From Centroscyllium fabricii (Eukaryota): 64,000 bases of DNA. Positions 23,471 to 40,681 of this stretch are shown piece by piece. Made by a program: the position numbers and the translations under genes. The DNA is taken from the NCBI GenBank assembly GCA_051313645.2, contig JBNRSN020000001.1:133238001-133302000 (forward strand), in the 5' to 3' direction. Positions within the stretch are counted from its first letter, which is position 1; each line of letters opens with the position of its first letter. The notes below the pieces were generated by a model that made no database searches, had not been told where the DNA came from, and saw only the letters and a list, made by a program, of their open reading frames with translations.

Positions 23471-24846
23471 GTAAGAACCTTATTTTGTGTTCCAAGTCCT
23501 TATTTCTATCACATTTGTTAACAGTTGTACTTTGAATCAGAGAATTAAGTTATTGTTGCCATTTACAGTACGTCTTTTGAAACAGTAAATGGTTCTCATG
23601 AGTATCTGGGTACCATCCCTGTGAACAATTAAAGACCTGTTGGGTGTCATTCTCTCAAGTTCTAATGGTGTAATTGAGATTCTCTTACTTGTATGCTAGA
23701 TGTCATAAACAATAGTCAATCATGTGATTCCTTATTAAAATACTTGTAGGCACAACATTGGTGGTGCATTTATAGGGAGGTCTGAGGCTATGCGTTACTG
23801 AAAAAGTTTGAATTTAACTTTGAAGTTGATGCTATTTAGTTATTTTCAAGCAATTTTACACTTCACAATTAAGAGATTTTTTAATTTAGTCCCATAACAA
23901 CCACTCTGCTACTGTTTCTGTGTAATGCTGGCTCGCTCCCTCCCCACCCCTTTTCAATTAATGCTGGTACTCTCCCTCCCCAACACTAAAGCACATCTTG
24001 CACTTTCAGCTCCGTTCCTTCTGTCCTTCAATTTCGTCAACCCCCCCATCCTTCTCCCAATCTGTTACCTTTATCAGTCACATCTTCACCTTGTTAAAGG
24101 CCTTTACCTCGCTCCATCAGAGTAGGGTTTTTCACTAAGCAATTAGGACAAATGCTTTAATAGGCCTCTACAGATGCAAGACATAGGTGCTCGCTATTTA
24201 AGTGTTCTCATCTTTCAATTGGGTCAGAGACAACTCCAGGGCACAATGACAGCTGGAAGTCCTGCACTTCCAGCAATTTCAGACACACTGGGGGAAAAAT
24301 TCAGTTGCTTTGCACTTCCTGTTAGTGCCTTAAGAGGGCACTAATGGGGCGCAAAGCAACCAGCGCCCGGGTGCAGCGATATCTGCGCCTCTTGCGAAAT
24401 TGACCGAACATTTTGCGGCGGCGCTAAACAACACCACCCCGATCTCCTGCGCTCGCCGATCTTGACGTCATTCGAGCATGCAACGCCCTTGTGACGTCCC
24501 GGAACAGAAATTGAGTGGCGCCCCCATCCTTTCCACCTGGCACAACCAACGACAGGTAGACTGGAACGCTTCCCAGTCACTGTGGGGCTGGGGGGGCGCT
24601 ATTTAAAGGGGGCCTCTTCCTGGCTTTTTCTGTGGTAGACATTTTTGCACCACTCGTTCTGAGAGAGAGAAAGAGGGACTTCTGCATTGAGTCAACGCTG
24701 TGTGAAGTAGTTTTGGCTTCTGACCATAACTTTGCAGGTACTTTGGTTTTTGACCTTCATAACTTTGATTGCCAAGAGACATTGGGGGCATCATCCTGCG
24801 CCAGCAGAATCGGAGGCCGCAGAGACGCAGAGAGAGAGTGGCAATC

Positions 24847-26221
24847 ATGGCCAGATGGAGGACGGCAAACAGGCCTCTGTACAGGCGACCTTATCCTCCC
24901 AGGATATTTAGCCAACAATTCTCATACATTAATATGTCTGAGGAGCAGTGTTTGCAAAAGCTGCGCTTCAGCAAGGAGGTGGTCACTGAGCTCTGCCACC
25001 TGCTGCAGCCTCAACTGAGGAGCAGGACGTCTCTGTCGGTGGCAGTGAAGATCACAGTGGCTCTGGACTTTTATGCCACTGGCTCATTTCAATCAGCTAC
25101 TGGGGACATCGCTAATATCTTCCAGTTCGCGGTCCATTGCTGCATCCGTCAAGTCACAAATGCCCTCTATAAAAGGAGCCAAGAGTATATCTCTTTCCCC
25201 ATGACCCCGGCCAAGCAGCATCAATGCGCAATGGGCTTTGCGAGGATAGTGGGCTTCCCCATGGTAGAGGGCGCCATTGACTGCTCGCATGTGGCTTTGC
25301 GTGCTCTGCATGAGAATGCAGAGGTCTATGAACATTATAAAAGACCCCACACACCCCAGCCACAGTCTGTTCGCCCCTCTGCCCTCCGGGAGACGCTACA
25401 GAGCAATTTGCACCCGCACGACTAGATTTCAGAACAGCTTCTTCCCCAGGGCTGTCAGCCTCCTGAACTCTAAAAAGAAACTCCGGTACCTGCACGCCTG
25501 ATAATGAACTTTACTGTATGCAATTTATTTATGTAATTTATTTCTTTTGTCTACACTACTCTCGGGAGAGTCGAGTCTTCGTCTCGTTGTATTGTACTAG
25601 TACTCTGCAATGACAATAAAACTTGAATTGAATTGAATTGCAGAGGATTTCTGCAACCGAAAGGGGTTCCATTCCTTAAACGTGCAGTTGGTCTGTGACC
25701 ACAGACAGCTGATACTCGCTGTCAATGCCCACTATTCTGATAGCAGCCACGATGCATTCATCCTGCGCCAGACTACTGTGGCACCGCATCACCCAGGTGG
25801 TTGGCTTCTCGGCGACAAGGGATATCCACTGTGTACCTGGCTGATGACACCGCTCCGTACGCCCAACTCCCCTGCTGAGCTGCGGTACGATGAGCGCCTT
25901 CTCGCTACCAGGAACATCGTTGAGCACACAATCGGCGTGCTCAAGCAACAGTTCTGCTGTCTGGACCACTCGGGAGGAGCCCTGCAGTACTCGCCTGAGC
26001 GATTCTCCCTCTTCGTTGTTGTGTGCTGCATGCTGCATAACCTGGCAATCCTCAGGACCCAGCCAATGCCACCAGGCCTTAGAGCACCACCAGAGGAGGA
26101 GGAGGAAGAGGAGCAGGAAGAGGAGGAGAATGATTATCAGCTGCACCAAGGTGGGAGGGAGGCTCACAATGTAGAAACTGGAAGAGCCGTACGTCAACGT
26201 CTGAAAGCAAGCCGCATCTAG
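24847..26221 (+). pseudogene. Harbinger transposase interrupted by a Rex1-like fragment
   Basis: [57 protein letters not shown] motifs. Confidence 0.9.
25325..25640 (+). mobile_element. Rex1/Babar-like LINE 3' fragment
   Basis: IIKDPTHPSHSLFAPLPSGRRYR; (TTGAA)n tail; TGCAGAGG-like target duplication on both sides. Confidence 0.85.
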
Positions 26222-26325: not shown

Positions 26326-26771
26326 TGTGAGCTATAGGGGTGGTCTGTGGTAAAGCCACCACACCTGAAGCTAATCTTCCCCTTTAGCTCAGCACTTAAA
26401 AAGGGAGCTGGAGCAGTCCTGAGGATCTCTTTATGGGAGAGTTGGAAGCTTGTCGAGCCTGTGGACAGAGCCAGAACCCAGGACCTCAGCCAGCAGCTAT
26501 TCGATGACCAAACTACCAAGAGAAGGCCTGAGGGCCCGGAGTAGAAGGTAAAGTAAACCCCGAGCTTATGACTTTGGGCGGACGGGTATAAAGGACTTAT
26601 TGATTCGAACCTCGAGAGAGGACGAAGGACTCTATCAGACGGGGGAATTGGGCCCCGATGTTTAAATAAACCACAGCCAAGCGCTGTTTCCAGTAGACAA
26701 ACGTGTGTTGTGCTTATGTCCTCCAACCCCGTGACGTTATTCCCCCTCGGACTCGGGAACGGGGTGTCACA
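26326..26771 (+). repeat. 5' LTR
   Basis: TGTGA...TCACA, TATAAA and AATAAA inside; highly similar to 28999-29502. Confidence 0.92.
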
Positions 26772-26773
26772 TA

Positions 26774-26790
26774 TGGTGGAGAATGCGGGC
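26774..26790 (+). promoter_or_regulatory. Primer-binding site, tRNA-Ala
   Basis: TGGTGGAGAATGCGGGC two bases after the LTR, complementary to the 3' end of vertebrate tRNA-Ala(AGC). Confidence 0.85.
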
Positions 26791-26906
26791 GATTGCTACT
26801 TGAAGGCAGAGATCAGTTTGTGACTCGGAGGACTGAGCACGCAGAGGGTAAGGGGACAACGCCCTGAAGGGAAAAAAATTTCGAGGGGAAAACCCTCGGC
26901 AGAGCC

Positions 26907-28385
26907 ATGGAGGCCCTGGTACAACAACTGAGCTATGCCAGTATGGCCCTACACGAACGGACCCAGAGAATTCTGGAAGAGCAGTGCCGGGGCTATGAGC
27001 AACTGAGACAAGCCCTTCTCGACCGACTGAACGCCTCCAATGCTCCACAGACGGTCCGCACCCATCAACCCGATGTACCAACCGTCGGGCACTTCATGCC
27101 CAAAATGACCAATGGGGATGATATAGAGGCCTATCTTCAGGCTTTTGAGAGGATGGCCAAAAGAGAAAAGTAGCCTCCGGAACAATGGGCTGGGCTGCTG
27201 GCACCATTTCTCATTGGACCCGTCCAACGGGCATACCTGGACCTGGACAGTGACGCGGCGGCTGACTATGGGAAGCTGACCACGGAAATACTTAAACGGT
27301 ACAATCTGAGTCCGCCGATCCAGGCCCAAAGGTTCCATGAGTGGGAGTTCCGACCCAGTGAATCGCCACGGAGTCAAACGTATGAGTTAATGCGGGTTGC
27401 AGCGGGGTGGCTCCAACCCAATCATTTGACGGTGACCCAGGTAGTGCAGCAGCTGGTTGTCGACCGGTATTTACGGGCCCTACCCTACAAAATGAAAGAA
27501 GTGGCGAGCCAGGCTAATCCCCAAACATCAGATCAACTCATCGCGCTAGTAGAACGGCACCAGGTCACTAGCGCCCTCCTGAAACCCAGCAGGTCAGAAA
27601 GGTCCCCGCAGTACCCGGAGAGCGGGAGGCCGGGAAGGGCTAGGGCACCGGGTCACCCAGACGAGGGCCGTCAGAGAGAGGTAACCCAGGTCCGAAAACC
27701 AAGCCGTTTTCCGATCCTTTGGGATTCCCGGCGTTGTGGGGAGTTTGGTCATATATCCTGGCACTGTCCTCGCACAGATGAGCCCATGCCGACGGAGGGT
27801 TCCCCAGACACGGGCTGCAGATGGACCTGCAATCTGCTGATGTCCAGCGGGGGACATGAAGAATATGGCCCCCTCATGGCCGCCATCCACGTCAACGGCA
27901 AGCCGGCCCAAGTGATGATCGACACCGGAAGCACAGTCTCCCTGGTACAACCACACCTCGTAGAAGGGGGTCCAGGACAAACCTTCGGAACCCTTAGGGT
28001 TTTGTGTATCCATGGGGATACCAAGGAGTACCCCACAGAAGAGGTAGTCATATCCTCTGACCGAGGAACTTGTAAAATGCGAGTGGGGCTAGTTCCAAAT
28101 TTACCAGTCCCTTTCCCCCTTGGCCGAGATTGCCGACTACATGCGGACCTCTGGAAGGTTGAGGCGTCGGTCCCCAGAGGTAACTTTGTGAAGACGGATG
28201 AAAATGCCATGGAATGTTGCGAAGCTCCTCCAATGAATGGAGATAGAGATCAGATCAAACTCTCCTCTCTCCAGCAGGACAATGGAATCAGCTTGGACGA
28301 ACACTTAACAGACGAGGAAAGGGCAAAAAGGAAAGCAGAAAGGCGTAGAGCCAAAAAAAAGCGTCGAGAGAGAGAAGAAAATTAG
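26907..28385 (+). pseudogene. Gag (SCAN-like) - protease ORF with one stop at about 27171 and a foreign C-terminal extension
   Basis: DDIEAYLQAFER, WLQP, CGEFGHISWHC, MIDTGS motifs. Confidence 0.85.
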
Positions 28386-28998
28386 GAAAAGGAAAAAGCA
28401 ATGAAGAGAACCAACTGTTAAAATACAGAACACTACGGAGGGTACAGAAGGAGGCTTGCAGGACAAGATAAAGGAGATCTGGCCGGTGGTACGGGAACAC
28501 ATGACACAGGCCCAGAATGAGCAACAGCGCGTGTACAACCGCGGGAGTTCCAGACAGGGAACCGTGTGCTAATATTGGTGCCCACGGTTGAGAACAAGTT
28601 CTTGGCCTCCTGGCAGGGCCCCTATGAGGTGATCGAGAAGGTGGGACCGGTCAATTACAAAATAAACCAGCCTGGAAGATGCAAGCCCACCCAAATTTAC
28701 CATGTCAATTTGTTGAAGAAATGGTATGACCGGAAGACGTTGTACAGCATCCTTCCTCTGCCCAACGATGTCCAGAGTTTCCTCAGGGAAGTCGTGCTCC
28801 TGGGACCTGACCTGTATGGCACACAACCGAGAAACTAATTCCAGGATTACAAGGTGGTTCCTGAGCTTGCAACCGTATACATTTACTGTCGTACACAGGT
28901 CGGGTACCCACCACGGGAATGCTGACACCCTCTCCAGATGTGACACCCTTTGGTCTGTCTGCGCTCCTCCCCGAAGGACGGAGCTGAGGGGGGGGATA

Positions 28999-29502
28999 TG
29001 TGAGCTATGGGGGCGGTCTGTGGTGGATGGACGATATGTGGCCACTAGATGGAGACAAAGTCCCCATCTCTCTCTGCCCAAGTTAGGTAAAGCCACCACA
29101 CCTGAAGCTAATCTTCCCCTTTAGCTCAGCACTTAAAAAGGGAGCTGGAGCAGTCCTGATGGGCTCTTTATGGGAGAGTTGGAAGCTTGTCGAGCCTGTG
29201 GACAGAGCCCAGGACCCCAACCAGCAGCTATTCAACAACCAAACTACCAAGAGAAGGCCTGAGGGCCCGGAGTAGAGGGTAAAGTAAACCCCGAGCTTAT
29301 GACTTTGGGCGGACGGGTATAAAGGACTTATTGATTCGAACCTTGAGAGAGGACGAAGGACTCTATCAGACGGGGGAATTGAGCCCCGATGTTTAAATAA
29401 ACCACAGCCAAGCGCTGTTTCCAGTAGACAAACGTGTGTTGTGCTTATGTCCTCCAACCCCGTGACGTCATTCCCCCTCGGACTCGGGAACGGGGTGTCA
29501 CA
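28999..29502 (+). repeat. 3' LTR preceded by polypurine tract GAGGGGGGGGA
   Basis: TGTGA...TCACA; PPT immediately upstream. Confidence 0.92.
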
Positions 29503-30034: not shown

Positions 30035-30912
30035 CATTCGAGACTCGTCAGATACTGACACAGTCCGTGTCCATATGCAGCAAGACCTGGACAACATTCA
30101 GACTTGGGCTGACAAGTGGCAAGTAACATTCGCACCACACAAGTGCCAGGCAATGACCATCTCCAACAAGCGAGACTCTAATCATCTCCCCTTGACATTC
30201 AATGGCATTATCATCGCTGAATCCCCCACTATCAACATCCTGGGGGTTACCATTGATCGTAAACTGAACTGGACCAGCCATATAAATACTGTGGCTACAA
30301 GAGCAGGCCAGAGGCTGGGAATTCTGCGGCGAGTGTCTCACCTCCTGACTCCCCAAAGCCTTTCCACCATCTACAAGACACAAGTCAGGAGTGTGATGGA
30401 ATACTCTCCACTTGCCTGGATCCAACAACATTCAAGAAGCTCGACACCATTCAGGATAAAGCAGGCCGCTTGATTGGCAGTCCATTCACCATCTTCAACA
30501 TTCACTTCCTCCACCACCGGCGCACTGTGGCTGCAGTGTGTACCATCTACAAGATGCACTGCAGCAAGTCGCCAAAGCTCCTTCAACAGCACCTTCCAAA
30601 CCCGCGACCTCTACCACTTAGAAGGACAAGGGCAGCAGACGCATGGGAACAGCACCACCTACAAGTTCCCCTCCAAGCCACACACCATCCTGACTTGGAC
30701 CTGTGTCGCCGCTCCTTCACTGTCACTGGGCCAAAATCCTGGAACTCCCTTCCTAACAACATTGTGGGTGTACCTACACCATATGGACTGCAGCGGTTCA
30801 AGAAGGTGGCTCACCACCATCTTCTCAAGGGCAATTAGTGATGGGCACTAAATGCAGGCCTAGCCAGCCAGCGACGCCCACATCCCATCAATGAATAATT
30901 AAAAAAAAAAAA
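30035..30912 (+). mobile_element. Family A LINE 3' fragment with poly(A)
   Basis: MQQDLDNIQTWADKWQVTFAPHKC; homologous to 10200-11240; A-tail at 30901-30913; AATC junction duplication. Confidence 0.88.
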
Positions 30913-31690
30913 ATCTGCTAGAGCACAGGTTGCTGGCCTGCTGTGGCGTAGTGAGAGCCCCAGGGAAATGCGTCCGAACCAGCAAGAATGGCAGCAGTCA
31001 GTGCTCGCGTGGCCTCAATCTGAGTCTGCATGAGAGCAGTCTGAGATGGGTTCATGGCAGCCAGTGACTGAATTGCAGCACTAAACCTTTGCGTGGCAGC
31101 TGCCTGCGCTGCAGCGAAGTGCTCTACACTCCTTGCCAGTGATTCATTGCATTCGGACACCCTTCCCGCTGCACCCATGAGCTCAGTGTGCATGTCCACT
31201 GCCTGGGTGTTCATGTCAGCGATGAGCCACTCCTCCTCTGCGTCCAGTGCAGTAGGACTCTCTGACATACTCTCCCTCCGGGGAGAAGGCCCCCGAGCTT
31301 CCCTACCCCCATCGCGTTGCTGCAGCCCGCTGGGTCCTGGAGCTTCACCCTCATTAGACGCCTCCCCCCTGCTCCCCTCCAGGGAAGGCGTGTTCTCAGT
31401 GTGGGCATGGGCTTCCTCGGGAGAGGGTGGCGTTGAAGCTGAGGCTTCATCTTCCTCCTCACCTGCAGCTTCACACACACTGGTATCTTGAGGGCCCGTC
31501 TCCTCAGCTGGTGAATCACCATCTAAAAGCAGGGAGGTACAAGAGTGGCTTTAGCGTGAGGACAGGGGGCAGTAAGGGAGGCATGAGTGCAGCGATTTAG
31601 TAAGTTGGATTGAAAGTGTCAAAGGCTGGTGTTGTGAGGGACAAGTGGAATGAGAGAGGATTGTGATGAACCTTTTGGTGTGGTTCACAC

Positions 31691-31937
31691 TGTGCGGTTA
31701 TTGTATATAGTTCTGTTTAATGTGTTTGTATATATCTTGTTATATATCTGTTAATGTCTTTACCTTTCTGTAAGGACCTGTACCGGCTGACCCTGCCTCT
31801 GGGTGCTAGTATAAAGGAGAATGCTCTGCCCACTTATCTCTCATTCCAGGCAGGCTCATCGGGGACACGGTTCAGTTCCTTGTTAATAAAAGCCACTTAT
31901 TAAGAAACTCGCTGCCGTCTTAATTTGAGGCATCTCA
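31691..31937 (+). mobile_element. Probable solo LTR
   Basis: TG...CA, TATAAA, AATAAAAGCC, same layout as 54780-55069; no clean TSD. Confidence 0.55.
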
Positions 31938-32150
31938 AAGACAAAAAGGCACACCATTGCTGTCCAGAACGGAGTCGGCGTCTCCAGTGGCGACGGGACC
32001 GATCACCCAGCTTGCCACAGTCCTCTGGACGCGCACCTCAAGATCGTTGAGGAGTTCCAGCTGAGGCCGCCCTCCACCCGTCCGTTGTTGCTGTCTCCTA
32101 TTATGATATACTTGGCCTGCAAGAAAAAGGACGGCGTCTGAGTAAATATA

Positions 32151-32256
32151 CAGCCATGGTCTTGCCTGATGTGCCTCCCATAGGCGAATAGCCCTTACTG
32201 TGTGCAGCCATGGTCTTGCCTGATGTGCCTCCCATAGGTGAATAGCCCTTACTGTA
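32151..32256. repeat. 54-bp tandem duplication in a Harbinger partner intron
   Basis: CAGCCATGGTCTTGCCTGATGTGCCTCCCATAGGYGAATAGCCCTTACTGT at 32151 and 32205. Confidence 0.92.
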
Positions 32257-33074
32257 TACAAAGTGTGGAATGTGCGTGTGTGTTTCATGAGAGGGCCATA
32301 GGTGTTGGATGAGTGTTGGGCATTGGGGTTTTAAGACCCTCTGGGCACAGAGTGAGGTTGAGATGGAGGGATGGAGAGGTATTGAAAAAAAGCCACTCAC
32401 CCTGATGACTCGAGTGAGGTCGTTGAACTTTTTTCTACATAGTATATGGGTCCTGGGCACCATGCTCCTGGAGGAGATGTGCTGAGCCACCTCCCTCCAT
32501 ACTCTTCTGTACTCGCGCAGCAAAGGCCTCCTGCCACTCTCTGAGTAAAGTATTGATCTTCTGTGCTCCACCGCGCCAACCAGGCCCTCCAAGGCCCACT
32601 TGCCGAAGCGCTGTGCTCACTCCCTGGCCCCCTCCATAGTCGTTGGCTGCAAGATTTAGCCATAGGTCTCTCCAGGCCGAGATTCAAGGCTTCAATGAGC
32701 AGGGTGTGGCTGGAGAGCAAGATCGACCCTCCCCTTTAAGAACTGGCCAGCGCCAGTGTGTCTGTGTTCCATCGCTAACTGACAGTACCTGCGCGGCGCA
32801 CACGCTCTGAGTTAGCGCCTCGCTCCTCGGCCCTTGCGCCTTAAGAGAGGGGTGTAGTGCCTGATTTAGCGCTCCAATCAACTCCAGGGGCGATAAAAGC
32901 CAAGTTTGCAGTCTGAGGCGATAATTAGCGCCAGGCGCTAAACTTTGCGCACAGCCGATAATCACACCCCAAACGGGGCGATACTGAATTACACCCCGCC
33001 CCCCCCCGGTCTTTAAATTGACTAAAGTCAGCTACTAACTGACTCTTCGGTTACACTCCAGTCAATTAATAGGA

Positions 33075-35882: not shown

Positions 35883-38800
35883 GGGAAAATTCAGTTGGTT
35901 AGCGCATCCGGGGGCGCGAACGAGACGCTAGTGACTTACCACCCGCAAAATCAAATTGGCAGTTTGCGGCGGCGCTAAACACTACCGCCATGAGATCTCC
36001 TGCGCCCGGAGATCATGACATCATCCAAGCGTGTCGCGCCCGGACTGGAAATTGATTCTCATCCCCTGCTTCAGCGTCTACCGCTAGGAACGACAGGTAG
36101 AGGAGAACAGTTTGCAGTCGGCTGGGAGCTTGGGGAGCGCTATTTAAAGATGTGTTCTTCTGTTTTTTCCTGTCGGCAATCAATTCTGCATACGCAGTTC
36201 GAGAGAGGGAGCGAGGCGTCTGGAGACATTTAACAGTTTCCTACTTGAAGGAGTTTTGGTCATCCGCAAGAATCATCAGGTTTCCATTTCTGTAACCTTT
36301 AGTCCTACCACATTTAGAAGAGTTAATGGGGGCTGTACTGGCACGGGGCCTCGCCCTCCAGCTTCATCGTTGGAGGCAGAGAGAGAGAGTGAAAAACGTG
36401 GCCAGAGGGAGGAGGGCCAACAGGGCTTTGCACAGGAGACCTTGCCCTCCCTGGGTATTCTGGGAGCAATTCTCATATATCAATCTGTCCGAGGAACAGT
36501 GTTTTAGAAGGCTCTGCTTCAACAAGGAGGTGGTCACAGAGCTCTGCCACCTCCTGCAGCTAGACCTCCAGCCTCAGCTCAGGCCCAGGACATCAGTGGC
36601 AGTGGCTCTCAATTTCTACGCCAGCGGCTCCTTCCAGGCTTCAACTGGGGATATTGCGAACATCTCCCAGTTTGCTGTTCATTGCTGCATCTGGGAGGTC
36701 ACAAATGCTCTCTACAAAAGGAGAAAGGAGTACATCTCATTTCCCATGACCTGAGACAAACAGCGTGTATGCGCATATCGCTTCACTAGGATAGCGGGCT
36801 TTCCCATGGTTCAGGGCGCCATTGACTGCACGCACGTGGCATTGCGGACACCGCATGAAAATGCAGAGATTTTCTGCAACCGCAAAGGCTACCACTCACT
36901 GAACATGCAGTTGGTGTGCGGCTATAGATAGCACATCCTTGCCGTCAATGTCCGCCACCCTGGCAGCAGCCACGATTCATTCATCCTGAACCAGGCTGGT
37001 GTCCCAGAACTGTTCCAGCCACCACATCAACCTCATGCCTGGCTCCTCGGGGACAAGGGTTAGCCACTCTGCACCTGGCTGATGACACCGCTCTATAACC
37101 CCAATACACCGGCTGAACTCATGTACAATGAGAGCCATATCGCCAGTAGGAACCTCATTGAACAGACGATCGGCGTGCTGAAGCAACGGTTCCGGTGTCT
37201 TGACCACTCTGGAAGGGCTCTGCAGTACTCCCCTGATGGAGTATCGATTTGCATTGTTGTGTGCTGCATGCTTCACAACCTCGCCATTTTGAGGACCCAG
37301 CCATTGCCACTAGGGATTGATGGACCATATCAGGAGGAGGAGGAAGAGGAGGAGGATCAACAACATGGGAGGGAGGTGCTCAATGTGGCTTCTGCAAGGA
37401 CCGTTTGTGAACGCCTCATAACACAGCGCTTCCAATAAATGACAGAAAAGATGGCATTTGGGATCAACAGCCACATCATTACAGCCAGCTTACAGCCCCT
37501 ATGACTGGCCAAAGTTCTATTGAGAAACATGAGGAAATTTGTAACCTTTAAATAAATATTTTTATTCTTAACAACTGTGTCTTATTAAGCACAACCAATA
37601 ACCAGCACAACAATTTATTAACAAAGACAACTGGTTCTTCGCATATCGAAATAATTCTTAAAATCAAAAATATATTTACAAACACATCCATCTTTGGTAC
37701 AAACACTCACTCCATTTAGTCAAAAGTTTTTAGTTAGTCGGCCTTCTTCAGTGATCTCCCTCCCTTTCGAACTCCCCTCCCCCCCCCCCCCCCCCCTCCA
37801 TAATGTGGCCCCAGTGGCTGCAGCAAGGTTGGCAGAAGGCTGCTGAATCTCGGAGCCAGAGATTGCAGATGGCCTTGCAGGACACCCTCGACCAGCTCTG
37901 GGCTTGGAGAGCCCGGCTGCAGACTGCATCAACTCTGCATGGGTGGCAGCAGCCTGGGCTGGCTGGGTTACAGGCTGTGGCAAGTGCAGTGGTGGAGTGG
38001 CAATGGTAGGAACAGGAATGCTGTCATCCTAAGAGAAGACAGCACCTTCTTGCTTGACCAACACACTGCTAATCCCCCGGGGCAGAACCTCAACATCCGG
38101 AACAATCTGCTCAAGCATAGATTGCTGGCCTGCTGTTGCACCGTCAGATCCCCGGTGGACTGTGTTCGCCCCAGCTACGATGGCATCAATCTGAGACTGC
38201 ATCAGAACCATTGCATTGCCTCAGCCTGGGCTGCAATAGATGCTGCCATCTCACCCATTACACGGGGTCTGGGTCTTCACGGTCTCTGCAACGAGGCAAG
38301 GATGGGATCGAGGGTTTGCACACAGTCCGTGCTGGCGGCGGACTCCTCTATGTTCCTAGCCAGTGCATCCATGCTCTTGGGCACCCATGCCATTGCACCC
38401 ATGAGCTCATTATGCATGCTCATTGCTTGAGTATTCATCGCCGCAATATCGAGGTCCTCATCAGGGTCCTGTGCAGCAGAACTTGTGCATGCACTCACCC
38501 TCCGGGGAGAAGGCCCCCGAGCTTCCCTTTCCCCATGGCGTTGCTGCAGCCTGCTAGGTCCCGGAGCTTCACCCACATCAGAGCTAAACCCTCTGCTCCC
38601 CTCCAGTGACCACGTGGCCCCAGTATCTTATGTGTCGCCCTCAGGAGACACAGGCAGTGAGGCTTCGGCTTGGTGTTCCTGACCCTCTCCCGCTGGGAGG
38701 CTGAGCGACAGGCTGTTCAGATGGTGGCTCACTATCGGAAAGCAGGAAGGCACAAGAGTGGCTTTAACGTGAGGGGAGGGGGGCGAGAAGGGAGCAAAGA

Positions 38801-39747
38801 ATGGAGACCGTATACTTAGGTGGAAAGTGGGAAAGGCTCGTGTTGTGAGGGGGAATGACAGAGAGAGAGAGATGATTAACATATCGTTGCTGTCCCCAAG
38901 GAGGTCGAGCTCTCCGACTGCCACAAGAAAAGGACAGCATGTGAGTGAGTGTGCAGCCATGTGTTTGGCAGATGTGCCTACCATAGTTGAATAGCCATTA
39001 ATGGCTGCAAGGTGTGAGATGTGGATGTGACTTTTAGTAGATGGGCATAGTTGTTGGGTGAGTCTTGGGGATTTGTCAGTTTATACCGTCTGTGCACAGT
39101 GTGAGGTTGAGATGGTGGGATGTAGAGTTATTTCAAACATCCACTCACCCTGACCACCCGAGTGAGGTTGTTGAACTTCTTGCGACACTGGGCATGAGTC
39201 CTTTGGACCAGGCATCTGGAGGAGATGTAATGGGCCACCTCCCTCCACACCCTTGTGAACTCCCGGGGCAATGGCTTCCTGCCAATGTCTGGGAACAGCA
39301 CTGCCCATCGGCGTTCCACTGCCACAACCAGAGCTTCAAATGCCTGGTTGCTAAACTAGTGAGTGCTCTCCCTCTGCTTCTGAGCACCCATGATATTCGT
39401 GGTTCAGGATTTGCACCTCCTTGCAGGCCTAGGTCAAATGCAGCAATGATCAGGGTGAGGCTATGCAGCATGATTGAACCTCCCCTTTAAGAACTGGCAG
39501 GCGCCAGTCTGTCTGAGTACAAGGTAATTGACAGCGCCGGAACTTGAGTAGCGCTCTGAGGTAGCGCCTCATTCCTCGTTGTTAGCGCCCTAAGAGACGT
39601 GTGTAGCACTTGATTTAGCGCTCCAATCACCTTTAGGGGTGCTGGAGACGAATTTCACAGTTGCCAGCGATAATTTGTGCCAGGCACTAAATTTTGCACT
39701 CAGCTGATGTTAGCACCCCAAAATGATTGATATTGAATTTTTCCCCC
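35883..39747. mobile_element. Full-length PIF/Harbinger transposon (family 2), decayed
   Basis: TIR GGGAAAATTCA / TGAATTTTTCCC, TSD TCA; transposase + (36326-37438, stops) and Myb/SANT partner - (about 37780-39390; VWREVAHYISSR...QCRKKFNNL). Confidence 0.92.
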
Positions 39748-40681
39748 TCAGAGTCTGGAACTCTTTCATCTGAGAACAATTCAAGGTAGTTACCCTCCCT
39801 CAGATTATTCAGGTAGCACTGCATAGTTGATCTCAAAAACCAACATACATGTGTGGAATTTCACTTTGAGGCATATATATCATAAGCACAAAAAGGAAAG
39901 ACAGAACTGGTATTTAAAAAGCTCTTTTTATATTCCTGGGGCAACCAATGGGTTACTTTTGAAATGCTGTCACTTTTTTATGTAGGCAAACGTGTGCACT
40001 GCAAAACTTCACAAACTGCAAGTGAATAAATGACCAGATTTGTTGGTGTTGGTTGAGGAAGGAATGTTCCCTGCTCTTCTTTCACTTGTGCCTGGGATCA
40101 TAGGATTACATAGGATATACGGCACAGAAACAGGCCATTCAGACCAACCAGTCCATTCTGGCGTTTATGCTCCACTCGAGCCTCCTCCCATCTTTCCTCA
40201 TCTAACACTGTCAGCATAACTCTCTATCCAGTTCTCCCTCATATGCTTATCTAGACTCCCCTTAAATGCATCCATACTATTTGCCTCAACTAATCCCTGT
40301 GGTAGCGAGTTCCACATTCTCACCACTATCTGAGTAAAGAAGTTTCTTCTGAATTCCCTATTTGATTTGTTGGTGACTATCTTATATTTATGGCCTCTAG
40401 TTATGCTCTTCCCCATAAGTGGAGACATTCTCTCTGTATCTACTCAATCAAAACCTTTCATAATTTAAAAAACCTCAATTAGGTCACCCCTCAGCCGCCT
40501 TTATTCAAGCAAAAAGAGACCCAGCCTGTTCATCCTTTCCTGATAGATATACCCTCGCATTTCTGGTATCATCCTTGTAAATCTTCTCTATATGCTCTCC
40601 AGAGCCCCTCTTTATAATATGGCGACCAGAATTGTACGCAGTAGTCAACGTGTGATCTAACCAAGGTTCGATACAAGTTTA

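Follow-up and report, generated by a model that had tools for sequence, protein, structure and literature searches.

A probable host mRNA capture in a Gmr1-type LTR retrotransposon of the shark Centroscyllium fabricii

The window analysed here, a stretch of 64,000 nt (G000:C1:133,238,001-133,302,000), carries an LTR element in which a foreign, A-rich segment had been predicted to sit in frame behind gag and protease, at the position of the integrase core. The question raised by this locus is where that segment came from: a captured, intronless host mRNA, a normal protease-integrase linker or another transposon. Genome searches covered the 7.2-Gb assembly.

The element and its foreign segment

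The element occupies positions 26326-29502 of the window and its features lie on the forward strand. The 5' LTR (TG...CA, 26326-26771) is 446 nt long, about 64 nt short of the usual 511, and is adjoined by a primer-binding-site-like stretch (26774-26790) that is common to the family. It is followed by gag, with a SCAN capsid domain, and protease (26907-28170), with a stop at 27171-27173 and a DTG motif at 27921; in the frame 27174-28385 Pfam SCAN was matched with E 2.7e-12, and the aspartyl-protease (RVP) match was weak (E 0.0076, under the curated Pfam cut-off) with the DTG motif present. Beyond the foreign segment lies the C-terminal part of the integrase (28457-28805; Integrase_p58_C, E 4.9e-14; SH3_Tf2-1, E 2.1e-8), and then a join (28806-28816) where about 1.24 kb, containing the reverse transcriptase (RT) and most of RNase H, has been lost between 11-nt repeats. 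This join is out of frame, with a stop at 28836-28838, ~160 nt upstream of the 3' LTR. The end of RNase H and the polypurine tract (28986-28996) make up 28817-28998, and the 3' LTR (28999-29502) differs from the 5' LTR at 20 of 432 aligned sites (K2P 0.048). The flanks read AAAA and TAAA, a 4-bp target duplication with one mismatch. On either side of the element (24769-26221 and 30900-32700) there are transposase-like and opposite-strand frames, possibly of a DNA transposon acting as its host, which is presumably of the PIF/Harbinger type; a diverged copy of this surrounding transposon, without the LTR element, is found at about 36370-39750, ~11 kb downstream.

Paired TG...CA LTRs, a primer site, a purine tract and a short target duplication are all present. 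A full-length sibling carries, in this order, the Pfam domains Integrase_H2C2, rve, Integrase_p58_C, RVT_1 and RT_RNaseH, and of the series PR-IN-RT-RH the window copy retains just the integrase C-terminus and the RNase H end. As far as the available text of 10.1101/2025.03.03.638093 goes, a SCAN-type capsid in gag followed by protease, and the order PR-IN-RT-RH, are features of Gmr1-like elements. From its SCAN gag and the domain order of the sibling the element would be classed as a Gmr1-type LTR retrotransposon, the RT domains seen being Ty3-type by Pfam only.

The frame 27174-28385 runs from SCAN through the protease motif into the foreign peptide without an intervening stop, and the foreign segment is 41% A compared with 25% in gag-protease, as the original prediction had it. 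The foreign stretch is therefore real, although its limits had to be redrawn to 28171-28456 from the predicted 28175-28435, and element sequence restarts at 28457 and not near 28440. A DNA search of the genome with the segment returned nine element places and three short pieces on contig C1044, 7 and 28 kb apart. These belong to a parent gene on a contig other than that of the window, with the exons concerned at G000:C1044:335.60-335.71 Mb, the pieces having AG/GT ends, introns of about 64, 7, 28 and 11 kb, and the remainder of the gene continuing to 335.84 Mb. Exon 1 was located by walking 64 kb upstream, a degenerate exon-1 pattern having matched nothing. The spliced exons, their AG/GT ends and the multi-exon parent on C1044 bear out the expectation of a captured, intronless host mRNA.

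Exon by exon, the segment consists of the last 9 nt of host exon 1, which form the 5' switch point (28171-28179; donor at G000:C1044:335600177), exon 2 (95 nt, 28180-28274), exon 3 (87 nt, 28275-28361), which contains the basic helix, exon 4 (28362-28412), and what remains of the captured half of exon 5 together with the 3' switch point (28413-28456), where two letters of the 5-nt overlap are changed. A one-base loss near 28365, private to the window copy, leads to the stop at 28383-28385, and 43 bases at the exon 4/5 join, including the end of exon 4, are missing in this copy only. In its intact form the capture covers about 330 nt of spliced mRNA, from the last 9 nt of exon 1 through exons 2, 3 and 4 to half-way into exon 5, and corresponds to residues 18-127 of the homologue. 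Since the gag frame is interrupted upstream, at 27171-27173, translation beginning at the gag start cannot yield a Gag-protease-host protein in the window copy.

The captured peptide shares 81% identity with the shark protein zgc:123010, whose domains are TPR, RRM and CCCH; zgc:123010 is the database name of this homologue, and the likeness to TTC31-type proteins suggested in the original prediction is tentative. Sharks and a chimaera supplied the best protein matches. At G000:C763:318126-358968 lies a paralogue of the parent, with TPR and C-terminal matches at 42-62% identity. Seven differences from the present host gene are common to all copies of the segment, and at four amino acid positions every readable copy agrees with the Heptranchias protein, so it is the host gene that changed and the copies that keep the older state. 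For the same reason, the seven shared differences were not taken as proof of one origin.

The two other sources posed at the outset did not hold. Mapping to host exons and the match to a cellular protein rule out another transposon. A normal linker between protease and integrase is ruled out by the siblings (about 95% identity), full-length ones included, which lack the segment and have at the capture site a linker of their own and a complete integrase, followed by RT and RNase H. An assembly artefact is also unlikely, as read-derived contigs from two runs of one study, which may be of the source sample, bridge the exon 2/3 join in DNA, the pieces at the 5' junction and the 43-nt deletion falling just under the 31-letter rule.

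The siblings also confirm the placing of the segment at the integrase core, as the host piece (about 330 nt) stands in for about 1.18 kb of integrase, making this a replacement and not an insertion. Neither a poly(A) tract nor a separate target duplication accompanies the captured piece. At the 5' junction six of seven letters of the element match those of the host, and either sequence encodes Pro-Arg; at the 3' junction, in other copies, five letters coincide exactly and each sequence encodes Gly. Both joins are thus in frame, and reading across them is kept in three copies, those on C822 (with one stop inside), C113 and C1377.

Spread and decay of the nine copies

A search of the genome with the 5'-junction pattern found nine places, against none in the control. 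All nine chimeras also share the 3' junction and the loss of RT and RNase H (about 1.24 kb, between two 11-nt repeats), and they are dispersed on nine contigs with differing flanks, so the expected further LTR copies with both junctions exist, eight besides that in the window. Among the five chimeras that keep both LTR ends, the 4-bp target duplications are perfect in three, where they differ from one another, and carry one mismatch in the other two. Segmental duplication is ruled out by the differing flanks and target duplications, and the predicted capture and amplification by a non-autonomous element agrees with these nine dispersed copies. One of them, L018 (G000:C446:25.75 Mb), is inserted in a 49-bp tandem repeat array.

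The RT-loss join occurs at ten places, the nine chimeras and one LTR-only remnant, which does not order the capture relative to the RT loss; no intermediate with only one of these two lesions was found in the genome. The remnant, L117 (G000:C822:216.88 Mb), is about 1.36 kb long, with two LTRs, 63 nt of the integrase end and the RT-loss join, and this miniature is likely to descend from the chimeric lineage.

LTR pairs of the chimeras differ by K2P 0.048-0.105 (five pairs), against 0.032-0.098 in siblings (nine pairs). A tree of 21 copies, from which the sibling on C667 was omitted for short coverage, is star-like with end branches of 0.025-0.047. The chimeras do not form one clade in it (two changes), one origin appearing in 18% of bootstrap trees, and just one column of the alignment separates chimeras from siblings. 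The tree is therefore compatible with a single chimeric clade without showing one, and it is the shared junctions that argue for a common origin. Both the origin and the dispersal of the chimera are likely to fall within the burst of the family itself. The copies on C1044 and C1488 group together (96/95) and have a gag stop and a frame slip in common; as proof of copying from a dead intermediate this pair was set aside, there being only three private shared columns.

All copies are broken. The frame is open from the gag start in none of the nine chimeras; within the insert, slippage or a nested insertion destroys it in six of the nine, and a stop interrupts it in a seventh. Private changes in the insert comprise 15 silent and 40 replacement changes (N/S 0.85), and those in gag-protease 91 silent and 189 replacement changes, with 14 stops (N/S 0.79), so on private changes the decay looks near neutral. 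Because pairwise pN/pS is lower in the insert (0.45-0.63) than in gag-protease (0.72-0.89), there may be weak constraint on the insert. An intact frame and purifying selection at a single conserved locus mark a domesticated gag-derived gene; here 0/9 frames are open and N/S is 0.79-0.85. The data consequently give no support to the part of the original prediction that envisaged a functional capsid fusion bearing a nuclear signal.

Further captures in the family and their reading frames

The family was surveyed with a protease-end pattern, which matched 54 places, all nine chimeras included; the fetched loci of these 54 matches represent 52 elements, about 18 of which could be read only partway owing to nested insertions or short loci. 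Host RNA is carried by 12 of the 52 elements read, from four independent captures, in this census that is blind to captures beginning upstream of the protease end. All but the nine-copy capture were seen in one copy each.

The ZNF438 sibling (L098:4425-4690; G000:C723:73.82 Mb) is a single copy in which RT is kept and the host piece is in frame at both ends. Its piece starts with the 3' half of exon C, continues through A and B and closes with the 5' half of C; the exons meet at GT/AG splice ends, the non-colinear junction lying exactly between a downstream donor and an upstream acceptor. With about 9 nt of terminal overlap it amounts to a single lap around a circle of some 265 nt, whereas shark ZNF438 homologous proteins run colinearly A-B-C. 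Only one occurrence of the exon C 3' half was found in 100 kb of the parent locus, which included 20 kb upstream of A. The piece is likely to be one full lap of a circular RNA, judging from the order of its exons, and a stop after one lap would fit cutting of the template by RNase H at the entry point. This capture exits the element within about 8 nt of the exit site of the nine-copy capture.

The UPF3 sibling (L144:2641-3926; G000:C845:22.84 Mb) is likewise a single copy, in which integrase and RT have given way to spliced mRNA of the UPF3 family, about 1 kb long and starting in the 5' UTR; the parent exons are at C1266:36.125-36.148 Mb, and a repeat was later inserted inside. In the SLTM sibling (L143:2600-4005; G000:C778:81.40 Mb) the capture also replaces integrase and RT. 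It includes the RRM, skips about 200 codons internally with the frame kept, and is interrupted by a LINE fragment of very recent insertion; the genome search did not find the parent locus of SLTM, its matches being dominated by this nested LINE. The SLTM and UPF3 captures re-enter the element at one identical site near the RNase H end.

All four captured pieces are sense-strand, A-rich (35-43% A) and purine-rich (62-71%), the element ORF having 26% A and 53% purine, and three of the four parent genes encode RNA-binding proteins. Two further family members, L132 and L133 (G000:C723:54.94 Mb and 55.82 Mb), lie in opposite orientation with the same internal protease-end duplication and the same LTR gap, which suggests local duplication or a shared parent.

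Across the four captures all seven coding-to-coding junctions are in frame. The eighth junction, in the UPF3 5' UTR, is in frame as the copy reads and out of frame relative to today's host UTR. Plain internal deletions are in frame in 4/12 cases, which differs from the captures with a Fisher p of 0.0065; scoring the UPF3 5' junction as a miss raises it to 0.025. The chance share of in-frame exon-element overlaps is 0.37-0.44, so 7/7 has p of about 0.001-0.003. As the bias was noticed post hoc in four events, with the two SLTM junctions read at the protein level only, it is treated as a lead, of which a filter for translated RNA would be the simplest cause if the bias is real. A literature search on a frame filter, in-frame capture or retrotransposon-RNA decay, with subscription papers mostly outside its scope, gave nothing on a frame filter or on the present family.

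Origin of the chimera and comparison with known systems

Taken together, it is very probable that a Gmr1-type LTR element acquired a spliced host mRNA in place of its integrase core by template switching and was then, likely by its relatives, copied to at least nine sites, all now decayed and probably functionless. Short matching stretches at both ends, the spliced exons and the model set out in the available text of PMC5131818 point to packaging, switching and help in trans. Host mRNA would have been packaged together with element RNA, the reverse transcriptase would have jumped to it and back at the short overlaps in one round, and the chimeric product would have integrated with both LTRs; having neither RT nor the integrase core, the chimera would then have been mobilised in trans by intact relatives. 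That three further independent captures in the family share the same anatomy counts for such mRNA capture, but a purely random switch does not predict seven out of seven in-frame junctions, and this counts against capture in its plain form.

Entry at the DNA level, in which a break in one genomic element was repaired with an mRNA-derived cDNA or a retrocopy of older date and the element was afterwards amplified, would also produce short junction overlaps, as these arise in DNA repair, and the star tree cannot order the events. It is nevertheless highly improbable, as no free retrocopy of the parent gene was found in the genome searches, all four captures are sense and replace pol sequence, two of them exit within about 8 nt and two re-enter at one site, and the full lap of the ZNF438 circle fits reverse transcription inside a particle. 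It is scarcely more credible that the Gag-protease-host fusion was useful to the element, for example through a basic nuclear-targeting helix, or to the host, and that this drove the nine-copy spread. The in-frame joins at both ends, the share of the chimera among the family (9 of about 52 elements read) and the pairwise pN/pS of the insert would agree with such a role, but no copy is open from the gag start, seven have lost the frame or gained a stop within the insert, private changes are near neutral, and the chimera, without RT and integrase core, depends on helpers. A protein search also gave no fused protein among 103 candidates, which is weak evidence.

A filter for open frames, by which only RNAs translated to near their 3' end would escape decay or be packaged efficiently enough to spread and become fixed, the host peptide itself being irrelevant, is possible but on balance improbable. 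It would account for the contrast between junctions and plain deletions, for the internal jump in the SLTM piece that also keeps the frame, and for the out-of-frame RT loss of the nine-copy lineage, where the resulting stop comes no more than about 160 nt upstream of the 3' LTR. The pattern was, however, recognised in retrospect and in four events, the UPF3 5' junction loses its frame when read against the present host UTR, the SLTM frames come from protein alignment and not from parent DNA, and some of the control deletions may be DNA events that followed insertion; three of the four captures are moreover single copies, in which a second round of copying is unseen. A wider proposal, that linear and circular host RNAs enter this single-polyprotein Gmr1 family at fixed switch sites and persist only in frame, so that the family acts as a frame-filtered exon shuffler yielding capsid-host fusions and possibly a source of SCAN-domain genes, is speculative and rather unlikely.

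With capture by template switching as the preferred reading, LTR-mediated gene copying is extended to a cartilaginous fish, with an unusually complete record that includes the parent exons, the donor family, both switch points and nine copies, in which four amino acid positions still show how the host gene formerly read. Capture appears frequent in this family, about a quarter of the copies read carrying host RNA, and from the ZNF438 sibling it can be seen how a circular RNA would return to the genome as DNA. If the in-frame bias is upheld in a larger census, it would indicate a translation filter on retrotransposon RNA and a route to capsid-host fusion genes.

The mechanism of LTR-mediated retrocopying has already been published for animals (Tan et al. 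2016, PMC5131818), and a literature search on LTR retrocopies in sharks, with most subscription papers outside its scope, gave only unrelated work. The present case fits the four features given in section 10 of PMC5131818. In common with those retrocopies, a partial spliced mRNA of a multi-exon parent replaces the internal ORF, there are short overlaps at both switch points (6/7 and 5 letters here), both LTRs are kept with recurrent switch sites, and secondary copying proceeds as a non-autonomous element, here to nine copies. It differs in that 'in-frame' there refers to the parent protein and here to a fusion with the element polyprotein at both ends, and in that one small family has four captures with one lineage at nine copies. 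Maize Bs1, as outlined in the same source, carries pieces of three genes, one of them out of frame, and is possibly functional, whereas the shark element has one gene piece and all copies are broken.

The crocodilian ERV captures of KIT-ligand and nectin3, to the extent covered by the available text of PMC4299795, are similar in that host mRNA is present in a vertebrate LTR element in several copies. Those elements are, however, retroviruses, in which the host ORFs are complete or nearly so and evolve under purifying selection, and the shark element is Ty3-type, with an N-terminal host fragment and near-neutral decay. The ZNF438 sibling resembles mouse circRFWD2, in which a back-splice exon junction is fixed in DNA in association with an LTR (Dong et al. 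2016, PMC4897178). Whereas the mechanism is left open in that account, as far as its available text extends, the single ZNF438 copy displays both switch points, with an overlap of about 9 nt, in a recognisable element.
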